A DNA stretch of 63,978 nucleotides, counting the filler, from Candidatus Hydrogenedentota bacterium (lineage in GTDB: Bacteria > JBFMHD01): NCBI GenBank assembly GCA_040752395.1. It is 11 parts of 11 records of this genome, joined end to end, with 100 filler letters (N's around TTAATTAATTAA, not from the genome) between each part and the next. Parts side by side here need not be neighbours in the genome. Positions count along the whole stretch, not along the records: positions 19,007 to 38,770 come from JBFMHD010000022.1; 10 more parts are not named here. One strand, given 5' to 3'. The position numbers and the translations under genes were made by a program. The notes under the pieces were generated by a model. The model was not told the DNA's origin. It searched no databases and saw only the letters and a program-made list of their open reading frames with translations. Shown here in pieces: positions 1-63,978 of the stretch. Numbering within the stretch: position 1 is the first letter of the stretch; every line of letters starts with the position of its first letter.

Positions 1-188
1 GTTTTTCAGAGGAGTCATCATGCGGTGCGTTGCACCGCTACACAAAGCCTGAAAAACCAGATTCAGACGTTTTCTTGCCTCTTGCTTCTTGCCTCTTTCG
101 TTATCTTTCTTTCCGTTATCTTGCTTCTTGCTTCTTGCCTCTTGCTTCTACTTGATATTATTATAGTTACAACGTTTTTCAGAGGAGG
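1..188 (+). repeat. Modular intergenic repeat copy (palindrome module, (CTTGCTT)n, terminal SD module) upstream of argG
   Basis: GCGGTGC-GTT-GCACCGC hairpin at 22-38, heptamer array, then CTACTTGATATTATTATAGTTACAACGTTTTTCAGAGGAGG ending 11 nt before ATG 200. Confidence 0.9.
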
Positions 189-199
189 TAGCTACTTTA

Positions 200-1414
200 A
201 TGAAAGACAAGGTTGTGTTAGCGTATTCAGGTGGACTTGATACATCTGTTATTTTGAAATGGCTTACTTTGAAAGGGTACGATGTTATAGCATTTGCAGC
301 TGATATTGGACAGAGAGAGGATTTTAAAGCTTTAAGAGAGAAGGCTTACAAAAGTGGAGCGAGCGAGGTGGTAATAACAGATATAAAAGATGGTTTTGCA
401 AGAGATTTTATCATTCCATGTATTCAATTCAATGCACGATATGAAGGAAGATATTTACTTGGGACATCTATGGCAAGACCCTGTATCGCTAAAGAGATGG
501 TTAGAATCGCCAATCTTAAAAAAGCAAAATATGTTGCACACGGAGCCACTGGTAAAGGAAATGATCAGGTTAGATTTGAGATCAGTGTATATGCTTTAAA
601 CCCTGATCTTGGTGTAATAGTTCCGTGGCGAGATAATGAATTCAGAAAACTGATTCCCGGTCGAAGAGAAGCGATAGAATTTGCTAAAAAACATAATATA
701 CCTGTTAAAGCAACTGTGAAAAAACCCTGGTCAAGTGATGAAAATCTGATGCATATAAGTTATGAATCAGGTATTCTTGAAGAACCAGCTGCTCGACCGC
801 CTGAGGATATGTTTGAAAGAACCCGCTCAGCACAAAAAGCACCAGATAAAGAAGAGATAATATCAGTTGAGTTTAAGAAAGGTATCCCGACAGCTATAAA
901 TGCTAAAAAAATGAAACTGGTTGAAATTTTACTAAGATTGAACGAGCTCGGTGGGAGACACAGTATTGGCAGGATAGATATGGTCGAGAGCAGGTTTGTT
1001 GGTATGAAGTCACGCGGAGTGTATGAGACACCAGGTGGCGAAATACTTGTTACAGCACATAGAGACCTTGAGGGAATAACTCTTGATAACGGCACTATAC
1101 AGCTCAAAGAAACGTTGATGCCGAGATTTTCGAAACTTGTTTATGACGGGTTCTGGTTTACTCCTGAGATGGATGCTTTAAAAGCACTATTAAAAGCAAC
1201 TCAAAAATATGTGACTGGCAGAGTAAAACTCGCACTTTATAAAGGCAGGGTTATGGCTATAGGAAGAGAAAGTGATTATTCTTTATATAATCAAAGGATA
1301 GTTTCTATGGAGGATGACAAAGGAGCATTTGACCAGTCTTTATCAACAGGGTTTATAAAGATACTTTCGATCCCTGTGAGAGCGCATTATCAAAGAACCA
1401 GGATTATGAGATAG
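200..1414 (+). CDS. argG: Argininosuccinate synthase
   Basis: VVLAYSGGLDTS, HGATGKGNDQVRFE and GMKSRGVYETPGG motifs. Confidence 0.97.
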   Translation: MKDKVVLAYSGGLDTSVILKWLTLKGYDVIAFAADIGQREDFKALREKAYKSGASEVVITDIKDGFARDFIIPCIQFNARYEGRYLLGTSMARPCIAKEMVRIANLKKAKYVAHGATGKGNDQVRFEISVYALNPDLGVIVPWRDNEFRKLIPGRREAIEFAKKHNIPVKATVKKPWSSDENLMHISYESGILEEPAARPPEDMFERTRSAQKAPDKEEIISVEFKKGIPTAINAKKMKLVEILLRLNELGGRHSIGRIDMVESRFVGMKSRGVYETPGGEILVTAHRDLEGITLDNGTIQLKETLMPRFSKLVYDGFWFTPEMDALKALLKATQKYVTGRVKLALYKGRVMAIGRESDYSLYNQRIVSMEDDKGAFDQSLSTGFIKILSIPVRAHYQRTRIMR

Positions 1415-1445
1415 GAGAGAGAATTCAGTGGTTAGAGGGATGTTT

Positions 1446-2825
1446 ATGAAAAATAGATTATGGGGTGGGAGATTCAAAAAAGAACAAAATCCATTGTTTA
1501 TGAAGTTTCAATCCTCGTTAAATTTTGATCTCAGATTATATTCTTATGATATTATCGGAAGTAAAGCATACGCGAGCGAACTTTGTAAAAAAGGGGTCTT
1601 AAGTGAAAAAGAGTGTAAAACAATAATAAAAGCGCTTGATGAGATAAAACAGGAATTAGACAGAGGAAAACATAAAAATAGAGAGCTTGAGGATATCCAT
1701 ACCCTTATCGAGGTTTTGCTAATAGAAAAGATAGGTGAAACAGCAAAAAAAATACATACAGGCCGAAGCAGAAATGACCAGGTTATGGTTGATATTAAAT
1801 TGTACCTTTTAGATGAAATGATTAATTTAAAGCAAAATATTTGTTCTCTGATAAAGACATTAGTAGCTAAAAGTAAAAAATATCTGAGCCTACCTTTCCC
1901 TTCATATACTCATCTACAACCAGCTCAACCTGTACTTTTCAGTCATTATCTTTTATATATTGCGAATACCATGTTAAGAGATGGGTTAAGGGTTAAGAGA
2001 TGTTTTTTGGAGCTTTCTTCCTGCCCCCTCGGGACAGGAGCAATCTCTGGTAACGCATTTTCTATAAACAGGGAAAGATTAGCAAAATCATTAAATTTTT
2101 TGAGTGTCACACAGAACAGTATCGATACAGTTACAAACAGAGATGATTTATTAGATGTATTATATGCGATTGCTGTAATTGGCGTTCATCTTTCGAGGGT
2201 TGCTGAAGATTTAATTATATTCTCAAGTAAAGAGTTTGATATAGTAGAGATAAAAGAAGAATTCAAAACTGGTTCATCGCTTATGCCCCAGAAACGTAAC
2301 CCTGATTTGTTAGAACTCATAAGAGGTAAATCAGCTCGGTTTATATCTAACCTGAATAGATTGATGATAGTATTGAAGGCTTTACCATCGGGTTATCAGA
2401 AAGATTTACAGGAAGATAAAGAAGCTTTATTTGATAGTATAGACCAGATTAAAATTATTCTTAATCTTTTTACTCAATTAATTCAAGGACTCAAAATTAA
2501 CGAAAAGAGAGCAAGAGAGATATTGGAGAAAGGACAGATGACAGCAACAGATTTAGCTGATTATTTTGTATTAAAAGGGATTCCATTTAGAGAGGCACAT
2601 AGACGTTCAGGTGAGATAATTCAAAAACTCGAAGAGAATGATTTAGATATTTCTACTGTTGATATAAAAATATTGAAAAAAATAGATTCAGTCATCGAGG
2701 ATGATGTTGAGAAGTTTATAAGAATAGAAGGCTCTATCAATAGAAGGAATGTAACAGGTGGTACTTCTATTCAAGCAGTAAAGAAAACCATCCGATATCT
2801 TGAAAAACAACTAAACAAATTTTAA
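1446..2825 (+). CDS. argH: Argininosuccinate lyase (start probably MKNRLWGGRF at 1446)
   Basis: LWGGRF, HTGRSRNDQV and GSSLMPQKRNPD fumarate-lyase signature; follows argG. Confidence 0.96.
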   Translation: MKNRLWGGRFKKEQNPLFMKFQSSLNFDLRLYSYDIIGSKAYASELCKKGVLSEKECKTIIKALDEIKQELDRGKHKNRELEDIHTLIEVLLIEKIGETAKKIHTGRSRNDQVMVDIKLYLLDEMINLKQNICSLIKTLVAKSKKYLSLPFPSYTHLQPAQPVLFSHYLLYIANTMLRDGLRVKRCFLELSSCPLGTGAISGNAFSINRERLAKSLNFLSVTQNSIDTVTNRDDLLDVLYAIAVIGVHLSRVAEDLIIFSSKEFDIVEIKEEFKTGSSLMPQKRNPDLLELIRGKSARFISNLNRLMIVLKALPSGYQKDLQEDKEALFDSIDQIKIILNLFTQLIQGLKINEKRAREILEKGQMTATDLADYFVLKGIPFREAHRRSGEIIQKLEENDLDISTVDIKILKKIDSVIEDDVEKFIRIEGSINRRNVTGGTSIQAVKKTIRYLEKQLNKF

Positions 2826-2839
2826 CTTACAACTTACCT

Positions 2840-3340
2840 ATGCTTTTTTTGGCTCCTACTATATGGGGCGATTTTATTGTTGAATTAACTAACAATAATG
2901 AAGTGCTTGAACTAAACTTTCCAAACCAGCGTATATCGCAGAGAATCAAAGAAAAAAATGAAAAACTGGGGGATGAATTAAATAGATATTTTACCGGGAA
3001 AAGCAAAAAAATTAATTTAGAATATTCTGTGGAAAAAATCAAGAGTGGATTTGATTCGAAGGTATTGAATGAGGTTCTGAAAATAAGATACGGCGAAATA
3101 ACAACATATTCTGATATCTCTAAAAAGTTGTATAATTCAGTTAAATGGACTCGGGCAGTTGGGAATGCATTAAAAAGAAATCCATTGCCTATTATTATCC
3201 CCTGTCATAGAATTATCAGAAATGATTCTTTTATTTCCGGTTTTTCTGGTGGGATAATATGGAAAAAACGATTGATAGAACTTGAGCGAGGTAAAAAATG
3301 TATTATATCCAGAAAAGGTCATTATTATCTTCTCTCATAA
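2840..3340 (+). CDS. ogt: Methylated-DNA-protein-cysteine methyltransferase
   Basis: RAVGNAL..NPLPIIIPCHRII active-site motif. Confidence 0.9.
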   Translation: MLFLAPTIWGDFIVELTNNNEVLELNFPNQRISQRIKEKNEKLGDELNRYFTGKSKKINLEYSVEKIKSGFDSKVLNEVLKIRYGEITTYSDISKKLYNSVKWTRAVGNALKRNPLPIIIPCHRIIRNDSFISGFSGGIIWKKRLIELERGKKCIISRKGHYYLLS

Positions 3341-4386
3341 TACATTTATTCTTATTTTTTTTACTCTTTCAATGGAAAATAGTCTATTATAAAAATAAGA
3401 TTATAGGGAAAGAGACCGGTGAGAAATTTGTATTTTTTACCCTTGAAGAAGATGAACCGGAAATAAAAAAAATAGAAACAGAGGGTAAACCTTTTAATAA
3501 TATTAAACCAGCAGAAAAAATAGATAAGTTAAAATCCAAAAATGAAAAACTGATTCTTAATAAAGATGATTTGATTGTAAAGGCGATGAAAGATATAAAT
3601 ATAACAGAGGCGGAGAAAAAAGAAGAAATCATAATACCAGAAAAGATTCAAAAAAAGGATGCTCAAAAAGAAGAAATGATAAAAGAAAAGCTGACACAAG
3701 AAGAAATAAAAAAAGATGAAGAACAGATAAATGTTAATAGATTAGTAATCGAAGATAAAAAAGAAGAAATTTTACCCATTCACCAGATTGATACCCAAAA
3801 GAAAAAAAACGATAATATATTAAAACCAGCTGAAATATTTGTTCCGATAGAAAACCCTGTGGATAGAGAAGATATGAAAGTTTTTGATAAAACACATTCC
3901 GATAAAGAAGAATCATTAAGAGTAAAATCAATAGATGAATTTTTAAAAGAGAAAAAAGATAGAAATGAATACACTCTAAACGAGTTTGAAAAACTGGATA
4001 AAGAGGATGAGAATGAATTTGATTTCGCACAATTTCGAGGCATTACTTTATCAAATTATGGCTGGGACTGGGAACCTTATTTAAGAAATTTAAGACGACA
4101 TATAAAGTTTCACTGGTATCCACCTGAGGCATTCAGAACCTACGGACTATGCTCAGGAAATACAATTATAAGATTCAGTATGGATAAAAAAGGAAATATG
4201 ATTGAGTGGAAGCTATTACATAAAGAGGGTGGCGGTGACTCTTATGCAATAGCACAGATGCATCAATCCAGTATCGATGCTATACTGACATCAGACCCGT
4301 TTCCTCAATTACCTGAAGATTTTCCTGACAAAAAGCTTGAAATAACAGTCGGCTTTTATTATTTAAAGTATGAAGAGAGTAGATAG
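3298..4386 (+). CDS. TonB/TolA-like C-terminal domain protein
   Basis: N-terminal TM with SLIIH, long charged linker, C-terminal HWYPP...PFPQLPEDF TonB_C-like domain. Confidence 0.7.
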   Translation: MYYIQKRSLLSSLIIHLFLFFLLFQWKIVYYKNKIIGKETGEKFVFFTLEEDEPEIKKIETEGKPFNNIKPAEKIDKLKSKNEKLILNKDDLIVKAMKDINITEAEKKEEIIIPEKIQKKDAQKEEMIKEKLTQEEIKKDEEQINVNRLVIEDKKEEILPIHQIDTQKKKNDNILKPAEIFVPIENPVDREDMKVFDKTHSDKEESLRVKSIDEFLKEKKDRNEYTLNEFEKLDKEDENEFDFAQFRGITLSNYGWDWEPYLRNLRRHIKFHWYPPEAFRTYGLCSGNTIIRFSMDKKGNMIEWKLLHKEGGGDSYAIAQMHQSSIDAILTSDPFPQLPEDFPDKKLEITVGFYYLKYEESR

Positions 4387-4410
4387 TAGATTGAAAGATT
4401 AAAATTTTTT

Positions 4411-4684
4411 CTGATACTTCTCACTTCTTACTTTCAAAGGCACAAAGGCACAGAGGCACAGAGGCACAAAGTATGAAAAGAGTCGTGAGTCGCAAGTCGT
4501 GAGTCAAAACAGGACTCAGGACTCAAGACTCAAGACTCAAGACTTTTCAGCAGGCTCCGGGCTTTTGGCTCCAGCCGGCTGTAGTCCGTAGCCCGTAGCC
4601 CGAATTATTATAGTTACAATGTTTTTCAGAGGAGTCATCATGCGGTGCGTTGCACCGCTACACAAAGCCTGAAAAACCAGATTC
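4411..4684 (+). repeat. Modular repeat copy running into the contig end
   Basis: (GGCACAGA)n, (GTCGTGA)n, (ACTCAAG)n, CAGCCGGCTG core, (GTAGCCC)n and terminal module; last 64 nt are identical to 1-64. Confidence 0.9.
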
Positions 4685-13080: not shown

Positions 13081-13246
13081 CTTTTAACTTTTTATAGGAG
13101 TCGTTATGAGCGCTTTTGCGCTCTACACTATTGGGTTCTTGGGTTCTTGCGTTCTTGCGTTATCTTTCTTTCCGTTATCTTGCTTCTTGCTTCTTGCTTC
13201 TTGTTTCTACTTGATATTATTAGAGTTACAACGTTTTTCAGAGGAG
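13081..13246 (+). repeat. Modular repeat copy supplying the SD of ORF 13254; a (GGCACAAA)/(CTTGCTT) fragment also lies at 12926-12988
   Basis: GAGCGC-TTTT-GCGCTC hairpin, (GGGTTCTT)n, (CTTGCTT)n, terminal module GAGGAG 7 nt before ATG. Confidence 0.9.
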
Positions 13247-20520: not shown

Positions 20521-20644
20521 TTTTGAAGGAATTGTCATGCGGTGAACTGCACCGCCACACAAAACATGAAAAACCAGATGTTTGTTTATCTTGCTTCTTG
20601 CTTCTATTTGATATTATTAGAGTTACAACGTTTTTCAGAGGAGG
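20521..20644 (+). repeat. Modular repeat copy supplying the SD of preT
   Basis: GCGGTG-AACTG-CACCGC hairpin, (CTTGCTT)n, terminal module GGAGG 7 nt before ATG 20652. Confidence 0.9.
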
Positions 20645-24921: not shown

Positions 24922-25046
24922 TAAAACAAAAGATGATATGCTGACTCCGGGCTTCAGATTACAGACTACAGGCTACGGACCCCAGCCGGCTGTAGTCCGT
25001 AGCCTGTAGCCCGAATTATTAGAGTTACAGCGTTTTTCGAAGGAGG
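24922..25046 (+). repeat. Modular repeat copy (long hairpin) supplying the SD of clpC
   Basis: CTACAGGCTACGGAC-CC-CAGCCGGCTG-TA-GTCCGTAGCCTGTAG, then ...GTTTTTCGAAGGAGG 8 nt before ATG 25055. Confidence 0.9.
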
Positions 25047-30613: not shown

Positions 30614-30623
30614 AAAACCAAAC

Positions 30624-30704
30624 TGATACCTCTCACTTCTTCCGTTATCTTGCTTCTTGCTTCTACTTGATATTATTAGAGTTACAATGTTTTTCAGAGG
30701 AGGG
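30624..30704 (+). repeat. Short repeat copy supplying the SD of exbB
   Basis: CTGATACCTCTCACTTCTTCCGTTATCTTGCTTC...TTTTTCAGAGGAGGG, then ATG 30712. Confidence 0.9.
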
Positions 30705-31951: not shown

Positions 31952-32294
31952 GCTTTTTCGCAGAAGTCGTCATAATCGCGGTTTGTGCTCTACACTATTG
32001 GGTTATTGGGTTTTTGGGTTTTTGGGTTCTTGGGTTTTTGCGCTCTACACAATGTATGAAAAACTAAAGATGATATGAAAAGAGTCACAAGTCGCAAGTC
32101 GTGAGTTGCAAGTCGTGAGTCAAAACAGGACTCAAGACTCAAGACTCAAGACTTTTTAGCAGGCTTTTGGCTTTTGGCTCCAGCCGGCTGTAGTCCGTAG
32201 CCTGTAGCCTGTCCTGATACTTCTCACTTCTTCCGTTATCTTGCTTCTTGCTTCTACTTGATATTATTATAATTACAATGTTTTTCAGAGGAGG
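31952..32294 (+). repeat. Most complete copy (about 340 nt) of the modular repeat
   Basis: All core modules in order, ending TATAATTACAATGTTTTTCAGAGGAGG before TTG 32305. Confidence 0.92.
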
Positions 32295-32304
32295 CAAGTG
32301 AATC

Positions 32305-33450
32305 TTGAGTCTAATTTATACAAGAGAACAGGATAACATTTTTTTTAATAGTATGCTTATCTCCATTATTTTTCATATCTCTTTATTTATTTTTTTCCCT
32401 TATTTAAGATATCAATTAACCGAGAAACCACCTTTAAAGATTATTCAGGTTGATATTACTGATTTTGGCACTATTTTGCGACATAAAATTTACAGCCCGG
32501 ATAAAAGAATAATCAGTCCGAAAGAGGAACTCACAGAAAAACAATCACAGGATGCATTGGTTGAGAGCGAGAACCCCAATAATCAAACCACTGAAACTTT
32601 AAAAATGACACTGGATATTTCGCAACCTTTTTTTAAAGAAAATAGAAAAAATTTGAATATTCTGGATTTAACAGAAGAAATTAAGACACCTCAATTACAA
32701 CCAGAAGACATCTCATCAAATCCTAAAAAGATAGACCTCACAGCAAGTATTAAACTTTCTAATGAAAAGCAGCCAAGCGAAGAGATATTTCCTGATAATT
32801 TACAAGAGAGAAAAATAACTTTTACTAAAGAAGATAGATTTCTTGAAAATATAAGTACCAGAGATAAAAATAAAAGTAATCTGGTTATGCCGGTACCTGA
32901 AAATCTAAATCTACCTGTAGACGACGATGCTTTTAAAGTACCCAATGAGATAAAGGGGTACCAGGATAAATACAAAAGCACTCAAACCCTGGATGAAGGC
33001 ATTGATAATTTTAGTTCAGGGATAGCTGTTAGTTCATTGAAAGACGATATTAATCTTCCAGCACCAAATCCAGCAGGTGCTGATAAAATTCAGAGTTTAC
33101 CAGAGGGGATTATTCCATTAAACCAGGGTGATATCGTTGATAAGAATGTAGGCCCTGAAGTAAAAAGGATTACTGCAGATAAAGATTTAAAAAAGAGAAA
33201 GGACAGAGCCATTATATACGAACCAGAAACAAAGATGCCTGCCTGGGCTGAAAAACAGGGGATAAATACAAAATTTAAAGCCCGTATCTTGATCGCTCCT
33301 AAAGGCGATATTACTGAGGTAAGATTGATTACAAAGACAGGGTTTGCTGAACTTGATAATTTAGCTATTGAGCATATTAAGAAAATATTATACGAACCAT
33401 ATTATGAATATACTGAAAGATTGATTGAAGTTGAGCTTATAACAAAATGA
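32305..33450 (+). CDS. tonB: TonB family energy transducer
   Basis: N-terminal TM with SIIFH, C-terminal P.WAEKQGI...TGFAELDNLA TonB_C; follows exbBD. Confidence 0.8.
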   Translation: MSLIYTREQDNIFFNSMLISIIFHISLFIFFPYLRYQLTEKPPLKIIQVDITDFGTILRHKIYSPDKRIISPKEELTEKQSQDALVESENPNNQTTETLKMTLDISQPFFKENRKNLNILDLTEEIKTPQLQPEDISSNPKKIDLTASIKLSNEKQPSEEIFPDNLQERKITFTKEDRFLENISTRDKNKSNLVMPVPENLNLPVDDDAFKVPNEIKGYQDKYKSTQTLDEGIDNFSSGIAVSSLKDDINLPAPNPAGADKIQSLPEGIIPLNQGDIVDKNVGPEVKRITADKDLKKRKDRAIIYEPETKMPAWAEKQGINTKFKARILIAPKGDITEVRLITKTGFAELDNLAIEHIKKILYEPYYEYTERLIEVELITK

Positions 33451-36600: not shown

Positions 36601-36822
36601 AAGGAGTACTTATGAGCGCGGTTTGCGCTCTACACTATTGGGTTCTTGGGTTCTTGGGTTATTGCGTTTTTGGGTTTTTGCGCTCTACACAAAGGATGAA
36701 AAACCAGATGTTTGTTTATCTTGCTTCTTGCCTCTTGCCTCTTGCTTCTACTTGATATTATTATAGTTACAATGTTTTTCAGAGGAGATGATATATTAAA
36801 GGCAAGAAGCAAGAAGCAAGAA
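36601..36822 (+). repeat. Repeat copy between bamA and skp, with an inverted (GCAAGAA)n tail
   Basis: GAGCGC-GGTTT-GCGCTC, (GGGTTCTT)n, (CTTGCCT)n, terminal module, then GCAAGAAGCAAGAAGCAAGAA. Confidence 0.9.
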
Positions 36823-42021: not shown

Positions 42022-42386
42022 CAGTAGAGAGTAGAGAGAAGACAGGAGACAGAAGTTAGGAGTTGAGGAGTTGAAGAGTTAAAGAATGTATGGAGTTTTT
42101 GGGTTATTGGGTTCTTGGGTTATTGGGTTTTTGCGCTCTACACAAAGTATGAAAAACTAAAGATGATATGAAAAGAGTTGTGAGTCGCAAGTCGTGAGTC
42201 AAAACAGGACTCGAGACTCAAGACTCAAGACTTTTCAGCAGGCTCCGGGCTTCGGGCTCCAGCCGGCTGTAGCCTGTAGCCTGTCCTCATACTTCTCACT
42301 TCCCACTTCTTACTTCTTACTTTTTTCGTTATCTTGCTTCTTGCTTCTACTTGATATTATTATAGTTACAATGTTTTTCAGAGAAG
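42022..42386 (+). repeat. Near-complete repeat copy upstream of nfi
   Basis: Core modules in order; terminal module GAGAAG 3 nt before ATG 42390. Confidence 0.9.
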
Positions 42387-43058: not shown

Positions 43059-43332
43059 AAAGATACAAAGATTAAAATTTTTTTCTGATACTTCTCACTT
43101 CTTTCGTTATCTTTCTTTTCCGTTATCTTGCTTCTTGCTTCTACTTGATATCTTTAGAGTTACAATGTTTTCGAAGGAGTCAACATGAGCGCGTTTGCGC
43201 TCTACACAATATATGAAAAACTAAAGATGATATGTTGGCTTCAGTCTCCGGGCTTCGGGCTCCAGCCGGCTGTAGTCCGTAGCCCGTAGCCTGTACCCCG
43301 AATTATTAGAGTTACAGCGTTTTTCAGAGGAG
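43040..43332 (+). repeat. Two tandem repeat copies (two terminal modules) near contig end
   Basis: ...TTTTCGAAGGAG-TCAAC-ATGAGCGCGTTTGCGCTC..., then ...TTTTTCAGAGGAG. Confidence 0.88.
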
Positions 43333-47426: not shown

Positions 47427-47875
47427 TTAAATGAGGGTATTGCCTTCGTCACTACGATTAATTTTATCTTTTACATTACGGGTTAAGTGAACCCAACACC
47501 GTTGCACAAGCGTGTATGGATATATCTTCTCCAAAGCTTTATGTAAACCCGGACTACCGTCAGATATAATCAGCTTTAACATATTCCCTATTTGTCTGCA
47601 ACGAGCTACTCGAAGTCTCTCTATGAGCCCAAACTCTGTCTCTAAATCACGATAATTCACACCACACCGGTAATCCACCCGCTTTTCGTCTCGTGCATAT
47701 CTGCCAGCACAAAGATAACGTGTGAGATCTGCGCTTATAGCTGCTTCTAAGGTTTTCTTTAACATCTCTAAATATTGGGGTTCAAATCTCCCCAGATATC
47801 CTCCTCTTCGACCTTGACTTCTTTCCATAAGTCTGATTCTGTTAAGGCTGTTAACAGCTTACTCATGCTTTTCAT
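47427..47875 (-). mobile_element. Degenerate IS256 (Mutator-type) transposase remnant
   Basis: R.DYR.G...RDLETEFG, LIISDG.PGL, VQRCWVHLTRNV; upstream AGGAGG-ATG(47875) is in another frame; internal region missing. Confidence 0.8.
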
Positions 47876-52627: not shown

Positions 52628-52903
52628 AGGGGCGGCGCTTAGGGGTTAGGGGTCGGGAGTCGAGAGTCGTGAGTCAAAACAGGACTCAAGACTCAAGACT
52701 TTTCAGCAGGCTCTGGGCTTTTGGCTCCAGCCGGCTGTAGTCCGTAGCCTGTAGCCTGTCCTGATACTTCTCACTTCTTCCGTTATCTTGCTTCTTGCCT
52801 CTTGCTTCTTTCGTTATCTTTCTTTTTCGTTATCTTGCTTCTTGCCTCTTGCCTCTTGCTTCTACGTGATATTATTATAGTTACAAAGTTTTTCAGAGGA
52901 GGG
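52628..52903 (+). repeat. Repeat copy with TTAGGGG module, supplying the SD of the AMMECR1 gene
   Basis: ...TTTTTCAGAGGAGGG-ACTACTTT-ATG 52912. Confidence 0.9.
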
Positions 52904-56810: not shown

Positions 56811-57092
56811 TTTACTTTTAACTTGTCATAGGAGTTAGAAGTTAGGAGTTCGTAATAATAGATACGAGTTCCGAGCTCCGAACTTTGAACTTCGAACTTT
56901 TTCAGAGGAGTACCCATGAGCGCGGGTTGCGCTCTACACTATTGGGTTCTTGGGTTCTTGGGTTATTGCGTTTTTGGGTTTTTGCGCTCTACACAAAGGA
57001 TGAAAAACTAAAGATGATATAAAAAGAGTCGTGAGTCACAAGTCGCAAGTCGTGAGTCAAAACAGGACTCAAGACTCAAGACTTTTCAGCAG
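56811..57092 (+). repeat. Repeat copy running into the contig end
   Basis: (CGAACTT)n, TTTTTCAGAGGAG-TACCC-ATGAGCGCGGGTTGCGCTC, (GGGTTCTT)n, (GTCGCAA) and (ACTCAAG). Confidence 0.9.
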
Positions 57093-61784: not shown

Positions 61785-62004
61785 AGGACAGAAGACAGAA
61801 GACAGGAGGAGAAGGCACAAAGCATGGAAAACTAAAGATGATATGAAAAGAGTCGTGAGTCGCAAGTCGTGAGTCAAAACAGGACTCGAGACTCAAGACT
61901 CAAGACTTTTCAGCAGGCTTTGGGCTTTTGGCTCCAGCCGCTGTAGCCCGTAGCCTGTAGCCTGTACCCCGAATTATTAGAGTTACAACGTTTTTCAGAG
62001 GAGG
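61785..62004 (+). repeat. Repeat copy supplying the SD of pyrR
   Basis: ...CCCGAATTATTAGAGTTACAACGTTTTTCAGAGGAGGAGAG-ATG 62009. Confidence 0.9.
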
Positions 62005-62008
62005 AGAG

Positions 62009-62620
62009 ATGATAGAAGAAAAATTATTAAATGAGAAAGAGATAGAAGATACTATAAAACGTATAGCTAATGAGATACTTGACAGACATCGAGATAAAAA
62101 GATAGCGATTGTGGGTATTCATGCAAGAGGTGTAATTTTTGCTGATAGAGTATATAAGATATTAAAAAAATCCTGTAAAAATATTTTAAGAGGTACTCTT
62201 GATATAACACTATATAGAGATGACCTTGATAATTTAGGGACGATACCCCATGTTAAAGGTTCGGAACTTGATTTTGATGTTAATGGTATTGTGATAATAC
62301 TTTTTGACGATGTTTTGTTCACAGGTAGAACTATAAGAGCAGCTTTAGACGAAATCATAGATTATGGACGGCCTGCTAAAATAGAACTTGCTGTTCTTAT
62401 AGACAGAGGGAATAGAGAATTACCTATCAAGCCTGATTATACAGGGAAATATATAAAGACAGAGAGAAACGAATATATTAAAGTCAGGTTCAAAGAATCA
62501 GATAAAGAAGATGCCATATATTTGATTAGAGAATTAGAATATAGAAGCAAGATAACGAAAGAAGCAAGAAGTATCAGGACAGGCTACAGAGTACAGGCTA
62601 CGGGCTCCAGCCGGCTGTAG
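62009..62620 (+). CDS. pyrR: PyrR regulator / uracil phosphoribosyltransferase with repeat-encoded C-terminal tail
   Basis: LDITLYRDD, DDVLFTGRTIRAALD and DRGNRELPI. Confidence 0.95.
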   Translation: MIEEKLLNEKEIEDTIKRIANEILDRHRDKKIAIVGIHARGVIFADRVYKILKKSCKNILRGTLDITLYRDDLDNLGTIPHVKGSELDFDVNGIVIILFDDVLFTGRTIRAALDEIIDYGRPAKIELAVLIDRGNRELPIKPDYTGKYIKTERNEYIKVRFKESDKEDAIYLIRELEYRSKITKEARSIRTGYRVQATGSSRL

Positions 62621-62676
62621 CCCGTGGCCCGTAGCCTGTACCCCGAATTATTAGAGTTACAACGTTTTTCAGAGGA
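62542..62676 (+). repeat. Repeat copy overlapping the pyrR 3' end and supplying the SD of pyrB
   Basis: GTACAGGCTACGGGCT-C-CAGCCGGCTG-T-AGCCCGTGGCCCGTAGCCTGTAC hairpin; GAGGAG-AACG-ATG 62682. Confidence 0.9.
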
Positions 62677-62681
62677 GAACG

Positions 62682-63677: not shown

Positions 63678-63978
63678 TCTTACTTTTTTTGAAGGAGTAG
63701 TCATAAGCGCGGTTTGCGCTCTACACTATTGTGTTATTGGGTTCTTGGGTTATTGCGTTTTTGCGCTCTACACAAAGGATGAAAAACTAAAGATGATATA
63801 AAAAGAGTCGTGAGTCGCAAGTCGTGAGTCGTGAGTCGTGAGTCAAAACAGGACTCAAGACTCAAGACTTTTCAGCAGGCTCTGGGCTGTTGGCTCCAGC
63901 CGGCTGTAGTCCGTAGCCTGTAGCCTGTAGCCCGTCCTGACACCTCTCACTTCTTCCGTTATCTTGCCTCTTGCTTCT
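63678..63978 (+). repeat. Near-complete repeat copy at the window end
   Basis: Same module order as 31952-32294. Confidence 0.9.

Follow-up and report, generated by a model that had tools for sequence, protein, structure and literature searches.

A dispersed, fixed-order repeat chain that ends in the Shine-Dalgarno sequence of the next gene in a Candidatus Hydrogenedentota genome, and its possible origin from gene-less four-helix-bundle cassettes

The window analyzed here is the whole stretch of DNA of 63,978 nucleotides, filler included, which consists of 11 contigs of a Candidatus Hydrogenedentota genome (2.84 Mb, 349 contigs, 34.8% GC, completeness of 93.8%) with N-linkers between them. 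The sample is strain-mixed, and the assembly retains strain bubbles. Genes were called by a simple mechanical caller (2393 genes). The focal repeat copy, at 31952..32294, lies in contig C135, with an exbD/tolR-like gene on one side and, on the other, a 381-aa open reading frame (ORF) upstream of bamA. Its modules sit where the preliminary description of this DNA had placed them. They are listed below, where FHB stands for four-helix bundle.

31954..31974, plus strand: lead-in of a degenerate Shine-Dalgarno (SD) type, TTTTTC..AGAAG followed by TCGTCATA; the family consensus is AGGAG-T(ACTC/CAAC)-ATG
31975..31995, minus strand: module A, a GTAG-tagged REP-type hairpin with the consensus GTAG-AGCGC-loop-GCGCT, its left arm degraded in this copy
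31996..32050, plus strand: module B, an octamer array (TTGGGTTA/C/T)n to 32036, and a second A half-site at 32037-32050
32056..32077, plus strand: module C, ATGAAAAACTAAAGATGATATG, perhaps the remains of an FHB 5' end (a weak lead)
32078..32154, plus strand: D-E-F, an inverted heptamer pair with a short loop, equal to the arms of the FHB gene of contig C284 (23 nt and 17 nt exact) and gene-less
32153..32212, plus strand: G-H-I, a second inverted heptamer pair and local hairpin, for which no FHB gene with such arms was found in the assembly
32214..32230, plus strand: J, a pyrimidine-rich 'right arm'
32232..32255, plus strand: K-L, a pyrimidine-rich 'right arm', 16 nt exact to the right arm of the FHB gene of contig C347
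32254..32293, plus strand: terminal modules M-N-S, ending in the Shine-Dalgarno sequence AGGAG (32289-32293)

The focal AGGAG is located 11 nt ahead of the TTG codon of the 381-aa ORF at 32305. The other copies in the window are as follows.

2..187, plus strand: copy with a rare REP variant, upstream of argG and truncated by the contig start
4411..4682, plus strand: copy at the end of contig C131
8991..9162, minus strand: copy before an aspartate kinase gene
13115..13246, plus strand: copy ABKLMNS
20568..20643, plus strand: copy cLMNS, within the mechanically called ORF 20523
24978..25045, plus strand: copy between mcsB and clpC
30623..30702, plus strand: copy before an exbB/tolQ-like gene
36622..36787, plus strand: copy after bamA, upstream of the gene preceding lpxD
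42099..42386, plus strand: near-complete copy before an endonuclease V gene
43175..43332, plus strand: A-C-H-I-m-N-S unit, 153 bp between two AGGAG, in contig C136 and missing from the allelic contig C98
43551..43684, plus strand: copy at a contig start
48065..48204, minus strand: copy cut by a contig edge
52260..52490, minus strand: copy before a 2Fe-2S ferredoxin/nuoF-like operon
52664..52901, plus strand: copy before an AmmeMemoRadiSam A gene
56898..57084, plus strand: copy cut by a contig end, with an upstream extension (GGAGTT/CCGAACT pair) in front
61826..62003, plus strand: copy before pyrR
62549..62677, plus strand: copy before pyrB that shares bases with the 3' end of the pyrR ORF
63685..63978, plus strand: copy cut by a contig end

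By strict anchors, the window contains 20 separate loci with at least three modules (21 rows, one of which is an opposite-strand duplicate), plus fragments. The earlier count of more than 25 copies in 64 kb is therefore reached only when the fragments are included. The copies had also been described as dropping modules while they keep one order. The order is kept, but at 1, 43472, 48053, 52628, 56811 and 63678 the copies are cut by contig ends, and some of the apparent module losses are therefore assembly truncations. Contig ends lie within repeats in 240 of 698 cases, and an assembly k of approximately 127 is obtained from end overlaps (26 ends). Contig C131 (window 1-4684) has an identical 64 nt of the rare REP-variant module at both ends, which probably represents a collapsed repeat and not a circle of argG-argH-ogt. 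The mechanically called ORFs at 62009-62620, 20523, 30610, 31402, 36712 and 43664 begin or stop within repeat copies, so that the annotation of gene starts and ends is affected. The true start of ORF 20523 probably lies after module S, and the pyrR ORF extends about 30 codons into a repeat copy. An IS256 transposase fragment is located at 47427-47828, and ARAGORN gives nothing for the window.

The copies were then counted genome-wide, with a locus defined as at least 3 of 17 modules recognized by anchor patterns. Among 1061 clusters, 501 are such loci. The modules occur 43-673 times each, as compared with 0-18 times in an order-3 Markov control (93 for S), and the core 14-mers have 140-340 occurrences each. 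Repeated 12-mers cover 38% of the intergenic DNA (410 kb). The module order is A-B-A-C-D-E-F-G-H-I-(J-K-L-M or m)-N-S, with 3284 of the 3552 adjacent transitions forward and 268 backward, and 223 of the backward transitions are duplications (109 B>A, 82 S>A and 32 L>K). These results indicate that the dispersed family of ordered modules is real and genome-wide, and that the order is fixed rather than random. The 501 loci carry 287 distinct module strings, which agrees with the description of the family as combinatorial. The linkers are constant across the family, so that the family lacks unique spacers, as had been reported. It had been left without a family name, and an Rfam search of the window gives no match.

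Relative to the gene that follows, the chain occupies the sense strand, and its end coincides with the Shine-Dalgarno sequence of this gene. The next gene is on the strand of the chain in 367 of the 398 loci with a neighbor, and only 4 of the 501 loci are inside genes. Among the 318 loci that are not near a contig edge, 261 have N or S as the last module, and the first module varies. In 249 of 337 loci, the terminal GAGGAG is followed 3-12 nt later by the start of an ORF of at least 60 codons, as compared with 66 of 1622 random spacer positions. The conservation of the family ends at GAGGAG, and the sequence beyond is variable (the top 6-mer is found in 6 of 323). The strict terminal-module pattern precedes 202 of 2296 called genes, housekeeping genes included, and the spacing from SD to start codon in these genes resembles that of 556 other GGAG genes. 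On the 5' side, the repeat tract starts within 15 nt after the upstream stop codon in 84 of 175 co-oriented junctions. The copies led by the REP hairpin start with the lead-in consensus given above, AGGAG being present in 104 of 130. Upstream of it, the chain continues through further modules, several of which are also terminated by AGGAG, and the paths meet at short shared words. An opposite-strand locus is located within 70 nt in only 4 of 501 loci, and the duplication of A is direct. The earlier statement that the copies have no terminal inverted repeats (TIRs) stands, but a short direct repeat is present, with AGGAG before the REP hairpin and GAGGAG at the chain end. That reading is extended here by three features, namely the orientation of the chain relative to the next gene, its end in a Shine-Dalgarno sequence, and FHB genes at other places of the genome whose arms match modules.

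Several modules match the arms that bracket FHB genes, and D-E-F is such a cassette with a few bases in place of the gene. The genome has five FHB (TIGR02436/PF05635) matches, two apparently intact, on C347 and C146, and three partial, and the FHB protein of C347 matches PDB 2RLD and 2GSC. The search for a co-distributed four-helix-bundle gene, which the preliminary description had proposed, thus yields genes whose arms match modules. These FHB genes are flanked by heptamer or octamer arms, and 7 of the 9 flanks tested share 13-23 exact bases with at least three mosaic loci: those of C284 with D and F, those of C347 with K/L, and those of C92 with GGCACA and B arrays. Both FHB flanks of C146 give no match to mosaic loci. 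Thus, four module families (D/F, K/L, GGCACA and B) match the arms of the genome's own FHB genes, and no matching FHB arm is found in the assembly for G-H-I, J and the terminal module. Among 913 co-oriented spacers, those with both arms of a pair have the purine-rich arm ahead of its reverse complement, and thus left ahead of right, in 49/49 cases for D/F, 40/41 for H/I, 14/14 for GGAGTT and 4/5 for K/L. At C284:24581-24840, an FHB gene ends after about 75 model positions and is fused directly to the right arm, as a half-collapsed cassette.

FHB matches are also found in 49 of 120 other genomes, in a comparison set that holds no genome closer to the source than the same domain. At 24 of 29 FHB loci from other genomes, the inverted arms score above the 95th percentile of cross-pairs, and the neighbors of these 29 loci are mostly co-oriented (22/29 and 21/29). 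In 100-kb samples, non-periodic 18-mers present at four or more loci number 0-15 in six other FHB-rich genomes versus 116-236 in three samples of the source genome, although heptamer/octamer arrays do occur (7-50) in the samples of the six genomes. The fused ordered chain is a special feature of the source genome. In one other genome (G017), partial PF05635 matches are paired on opposite strands, approximately 180-370 nt apart, at several places. Other FHB-rich genomes contain REP-like hairpins, with 4-5 loci in each 100 kb (L151-L155 of G074 and L146-L150 of G120).

Module C resembles the start of the FHB gene of C92, but 27 of 2311 gene starts score equal or higher, and its reading as an FHB remnant is a weak lead. 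Module A is a GTAG-type REP hairpin. Its minus strand carries the GTAG tag and a short hairpin in 129-130 complete copies, and a GTAG REP is defined, in excerpts of the source, as an unpaired GTAG followed by a hairpin of 5-6 bp (PMC3733652).

The chain works like BOX, BIME or Neisseria REP2 and appears to be a member of none of them. It has arm sequences and left/right polarity in common with the FHB cassettes, D-E-F being a gene-less cassette. Inverted 7/8-mer arms on the sense strand, left before right, are found for D/F, K/L, GGCACA and B. The chain differs from these cassettes in its fusion of many different arms, which follow a single order and are joined by linkers that are constant and non-periodic. 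The search of the literature found no paper on FHB-linked heptamer arms or on such a mosaic chain. The STRR repeats of cyanobacteria are comparable heptamer repeats, and the resemblance to STRR and to BIME/REP noted earlier is a fair one.

TAACTGA heptamer repeats are described for Beggiatoaceae, Cyanobacteria and Bacteroidetes (MacGregor 2015, PMC4679880). As far as excerpts of this paper go, they are likewise forward-oriented intergenic heptamer arrays just 5' of gene starts, essential genes included, with no known mechanism; in contrast to the chain, they have one unit type, overlap the expected ribosome-binding site (RBS), have an SD in about 10% of cases and show no multi-module order. 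The main text contains neither 'helix bundle' nor 'intervening', and Supplemental Table 7 (hypothetical protein BOGUAY_0693) is of possible relevance to a connection with FHB genes. Neisseria REP2 has 23-26 copies of 120-150 bp with promoter and ATG included (Delihas 2011, PMC3184786, in part). Like the chain, REP2 and Borrelia IR-A/IR-B, as portrayed in that part, lack TIRs, have internal hairpins and an RBS, and lie immediately 5' of unrelated genes (PMC3184786). The chain also places an RBS directly 5' of unrelated genes without a TIR. It differs from REP2 in its hundreds of copies, in its modular heptamer build and in stopping at the SD without ATG, the sequence after GAGGAG being variable.

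The BOX elements of pneumococci and S. suis are similar to the chain in having ordered modules, variable internal copy number, more than 100 copies and intergenic location, and the E. coli BIMEs and Neisseria NIMEs are grouped with BOX as mosaic repeats in excerpts of PMC3049150. Ordered modules with variable copy number are likewise found here. BOX differs in its TIRs, which are likened to those of ISSpn2, and in its modules of about 50 nt, and, with no Rfam match for the window, it appears to have no sequence relation to the chain, in which at least 17 modules are strand-locked to the next gene (PMC3049150, in part). The GTAG REPs and REPINs that accompany RAYT share the unpaired GTAG and the 5-6 bp hairpin with module A. 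The chain differs from them, as portions of PMC3733652 and PMC3116915 present them, in that a single strand-locked REP is located within a larger chain instead of an inverted doublet, and RAYT is not found. The TIRs of a MITE are absent, because the ends are direct (AGGAG ... GAGGAG) and the 5' ends variable. A CRISPR is not indicated, since the linkers are constant family-wide without an Rfam match, and the reverse transcriptase of a DGR is not found by profile search.

Other repeats with inverted ends are seen in the genome. A repeat of about 150 bp at C287:6400-6570 and 32 other places (33 copies), with ends AGAGGTCTC...GAGACCTCT and internal GTAG-led hairpins, is MITE-like, as is a repeat of about 95 bp at C315:7225-7345 and 30 other places (31 copies), with ends CAGAACGTGTGAAA...TTTCACACGTTCTGA. 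A repeat of about 85 bp at C316:4830-4925 and 19 other places (20 copies), with ends TATACTGCTCCCC, is nearly invariant. By eye, HicB-, RelE/antitoxin- and nucleotidyltransferase-like small genes or remnants adjoin copies of the chain at C285:375-630, C50 ~6350, C107 ~1440 and C96 ~3080.

Strain bubbles permit the alleles of one locus to be compared. Of 129 candidate pairs, 34 were removed as non-allelic and 95 were retained. The pooled differences are 46 substitutions and 30 indels in 2631 bp of repeat and 120 substitutions and 18 indels in 16082 bp of unique DNA, but these rates are inflated by non-allelic tails (C208/C293, C208/C62 and C38/C65) and an inversion (C303/C314), so that only named allele pairs are relied on. 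Alleles of one locus differ in the number of array units, in whole modules and in alternative versions of modules. C251/C61, with both flanks anchored, differ by B and the second A (63 bp). C269/C321, with one flank anchored, have the J-K-L-M versus the m branch, with matching neighboring variants and the same gene downstream, and in C194/C50, also anchored at one flank, two common forms of the G-H linker are swapped. Several allele pairs differ by 7, 8 or 14 nt. In C136/C98, with both flanks anchored, the 153-bp unit between AGGAG repeats is present or absent, and the empty allele, C98, has AGGAG once versus twice in C136. C98 keeps the CGAAGGAG variant, which is found before module A in 5/12 and at chain ends in 13/248, and this bubble is therefore more likely a deletion than proof of an insertion. 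The pairs C35/C285, C148/C260, C158/C254 and C208/C293 have a common upstream flank and a different gene downstream of the repeat copy, and may be either real strain rearrangements or chimeric mis-joins. Internal modules are inverted between inverted arms in C303/C314 (allelic), at C90:2532-2920 and in C158/C254.

Linkage between copies was analyzed with 474 single-pass loci, 15 variant sites and 76 informative site pairs. For sites up to 30 nt apart the mean r2 is 0.078, and the bins of greater distance give 0.015, 0.027 and 0.019; variant sites are unlinked beyond approximately 12-25 nt (mean r2 of about 0.02). All four allele combinations occur at 73 of the 76 site pairs, and all 35 long haplotypes are distinct. 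Under clonal copying, the simulated mean r2 is 0.42 for the coalescent and 0.26 for the Yule model, and the first percentiles are 0.18 and 0.14, so that the clonal copies with linked variants expected of a MITE are not found. Sites in hairpin arms are also unlinked, with r2 of 0.013 both for D1-F1 (n=165) and for GH2-Iend (n=112). Several variant sites sit within arrays, where slippage alone could regenerate alleles, but the mean r2 of the 23 non-array site pairs except M1-N1 is still 0.015. In control families of 33 and 31 copies from the same assembly, r2 is 0.29-0.35 for sites up to 12 nt apart, 0.12-0.33 at 13-30 nt, and near the null thereafter. The pipeline is able to detect linkage, because these two lower-copy families keep it within 12 nt. 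Because they lose linkage too at longer distances, short-tract exchange seems to operate throughout the genome and to have gone furthest in the most abundant family.

The longest tract shared between copies has a median of 75 nt, with one pair at 180 nt. Recent whole-unit copies are under-counted, because copies identical over at least 127 nt collapse in the assembly. The rare REP variant occurs at 6 places; it recurs together with its neighbors at several loci, and several of the places then continue with identical sequence, which represents some whole-block copying. The copies nevertheless appear to swap very short pieces among themselves rather than to arise by whole-unit copying. The earlier term 'self-propagating', in the sense of whole-unit copying from masters as the dominant process, is thus not borne out by linkage that is gone within about 25 nt.

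Genes that may act on the chain were searched for in this 93.8% complete genome. Neither of the two enzymes suggested earlier is found, RAYT giving no match to the PF01797 or NF047646 profiles and reverse transcriptase none to PF00078 (RVT_1). A GxxExxY gene (TIGR04256) is likewise not found in the genome. PF00589 has 3 matches and IS110 is present in a single copy. ComEC is present twice, and MutS and MutL are present and intact. The second ComEC/Competence domain is located at C298:1803-2714 in a 1025-aa open frame. A DNA search of 40 other genomes, all related at the level of the domain only, gives 0 matches, and metagenome scans by pattern and by protein and one viral scan found nothing, in collections from which near-identical records may be missing. 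A ClpC scan of the contigs of other genomes gives distant taxa only, with best identities of 43-58%.

On balance, the repeat is probably a fused, fixed-order chain of gene-less FHB-cassette arms and a REP, whose spread and shuffling would be due to recombination over very short tracts, with the Shine-Dalgarno sequence as the anchor. That it is a chain of relics, not one transposon, seems to us somewhat favored by the evidence. The spreading step is one that we infer, because 0 of 40 genomes gave orthologous empty junctions and the metagenome scans were empty. FHB cassettes and REPs would accumulate at gene junctions and lose their genes, and one nested stack would turn into a template. Its spread and reshuffling would proceed by ectopic recombination or template switching at homologies of about 5-30 nt, for which the likeliest donors would be short single-stranded fragments, for example from the uptake of kin DNA (two ComEC genes). 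The 3' anchor would be AGGAG, the one sequence common to most gene starts, beyond which copying would harm the gene, and entry at the 5' side would be possible at any module joint. Unit counts would be altered by slippage. The polarity would be taken over from the FHB cassettes and retained by the need to leave a ribosome-binding site. Intact MutS and MutL count against this proposal, because they should oppose mismatched short tracts. Many of the family variants are clustered multi-base changes, and changes of this kind can escape mismatch repair.

It is unlikely that the repeat is instead a non-autonomous element that a trans-acting protein moves as one unit. Such an element would integrate at the SD through an AGGAG core and be eroded by recombination later. 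The candidates for the trans-acting factor are the FHB protein together with a host enzyme, a RAYT that is lost or missing from the assembly, and the single IS110. Two FHB genes are apparently intact and one IS110 is present, but RAYT is absent by two models and the flanks of the IS110, examined by eye, contain no mosaic modules. Head-to-tail joins (the 82 S>A transitions), the filled/empty pair C136/C98 at AGGAG, and the rare REP variant at 6 places are as expected for such movement; 5' ends spread over many modules and the absence of linkage are not. The AGGAG at both ends (the 104 of 130 REP-led copies) is likewise in favor of such movement. However, TTTTTC is approximately 60% conserved in 53 copies with unique upstream DNA, and the distance from stop codon to AGGAG is longer than that of repeat-free junctions (24/39 within 30 nt, as compared with 76% of 141). 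The left AGGAG is therefore often part of the element and not of the target.

Still less probable is a domesticated portable 5' leader (promoter and RBS) selected to co-regulate genes and perhaps read by an RNA-binding FHB pentamer. Such a leader could account for the terminal module before 202 of 2296 genes, housekeeping genes included, and for the near absence of loci inside genes (4/501). An M variant contains TGnTATTAT, an extended -10-like motif as read from the sequence. M is nevertheless present at 20 of 30 divergent versus 112 of 175 co-oriented junctions, which is no enrichment where a promoter is needed, and a portable promoter is unsupported. The fold of the focal copy is no better than that of shuffles (z of -1.35) and the hairpin-arm sites are unlinked, and a reading as structured RNA is rejected on these grounds. 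The downstream genes are of ordinary length, and the element lacks the ATG carried by REP2. Enrichment of small cargo genes downstream is unsupported (18% versus 16% under 130 aa).

There is little probability that the combinatorial pattern is mainly an artefact of chimeric short-read assembly through repeats, combined with local slippage. The frequency of contig ends in repeats, the strain-mixed sample and the four pairs with the same upstream and different downstream sequence could be read in this way. However, joins within 10-80 nt are not expected from graph traversal at k of about 127, so that graph chimeras should not erase linkage at these distances. In addition, copies are located between the expected neighbors mcsB-clpC, exbB-exbD and pyrR-pyrB, and the control families retain short-range linkage. 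RNA-templated spread, in which leaders are reverse-transcribed from the SD end and integrated with variable 5' truncation (DGR/Avd-like, FHB proteins being similar to Avd), would fit a chain on the sense strand whose 3' end is fixed and whose 5' end varies, but is very improbable, because RVT_1 has no match in the 93.8% complete genome and the 5' variation consists mostly of alternative modules, not clean truncation.

The reading of the repeat as a chain of FHB-cassette arms and a REP can be carried further, although with much less confidence. The chain may be a selfish repeat network free of transposase and reverse transcriptase, in which the Avd-like FHB protein would bind the arms on RNA or single-stranded DNA, promote annealing of very short fragments at gene junctions and home the chain to Shine-Dalgarno sites. 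If this speculative reading is true, the ribosome-binding sites of about a tenth of the genes have been taken over, and the chain is a recombination platform that shuffles neighboring genes between strains. A practical consequence of these repeats is that assemblies are interrupted at them and that mechanically called gene starts are displaced. In one genome, the repeats join three unexplained things: intergenic heptamer repeats, the function-less FHB family and RBS-carrying repeats. They also provide a measurable signature, namely hundreds of dispersed copies near linkage equilibrium over 10-25 nt with MutS and MutL present, and this signature suggests that short patches are exchanged by a pathway other than transposition or ordinary long-tract gene conversion.
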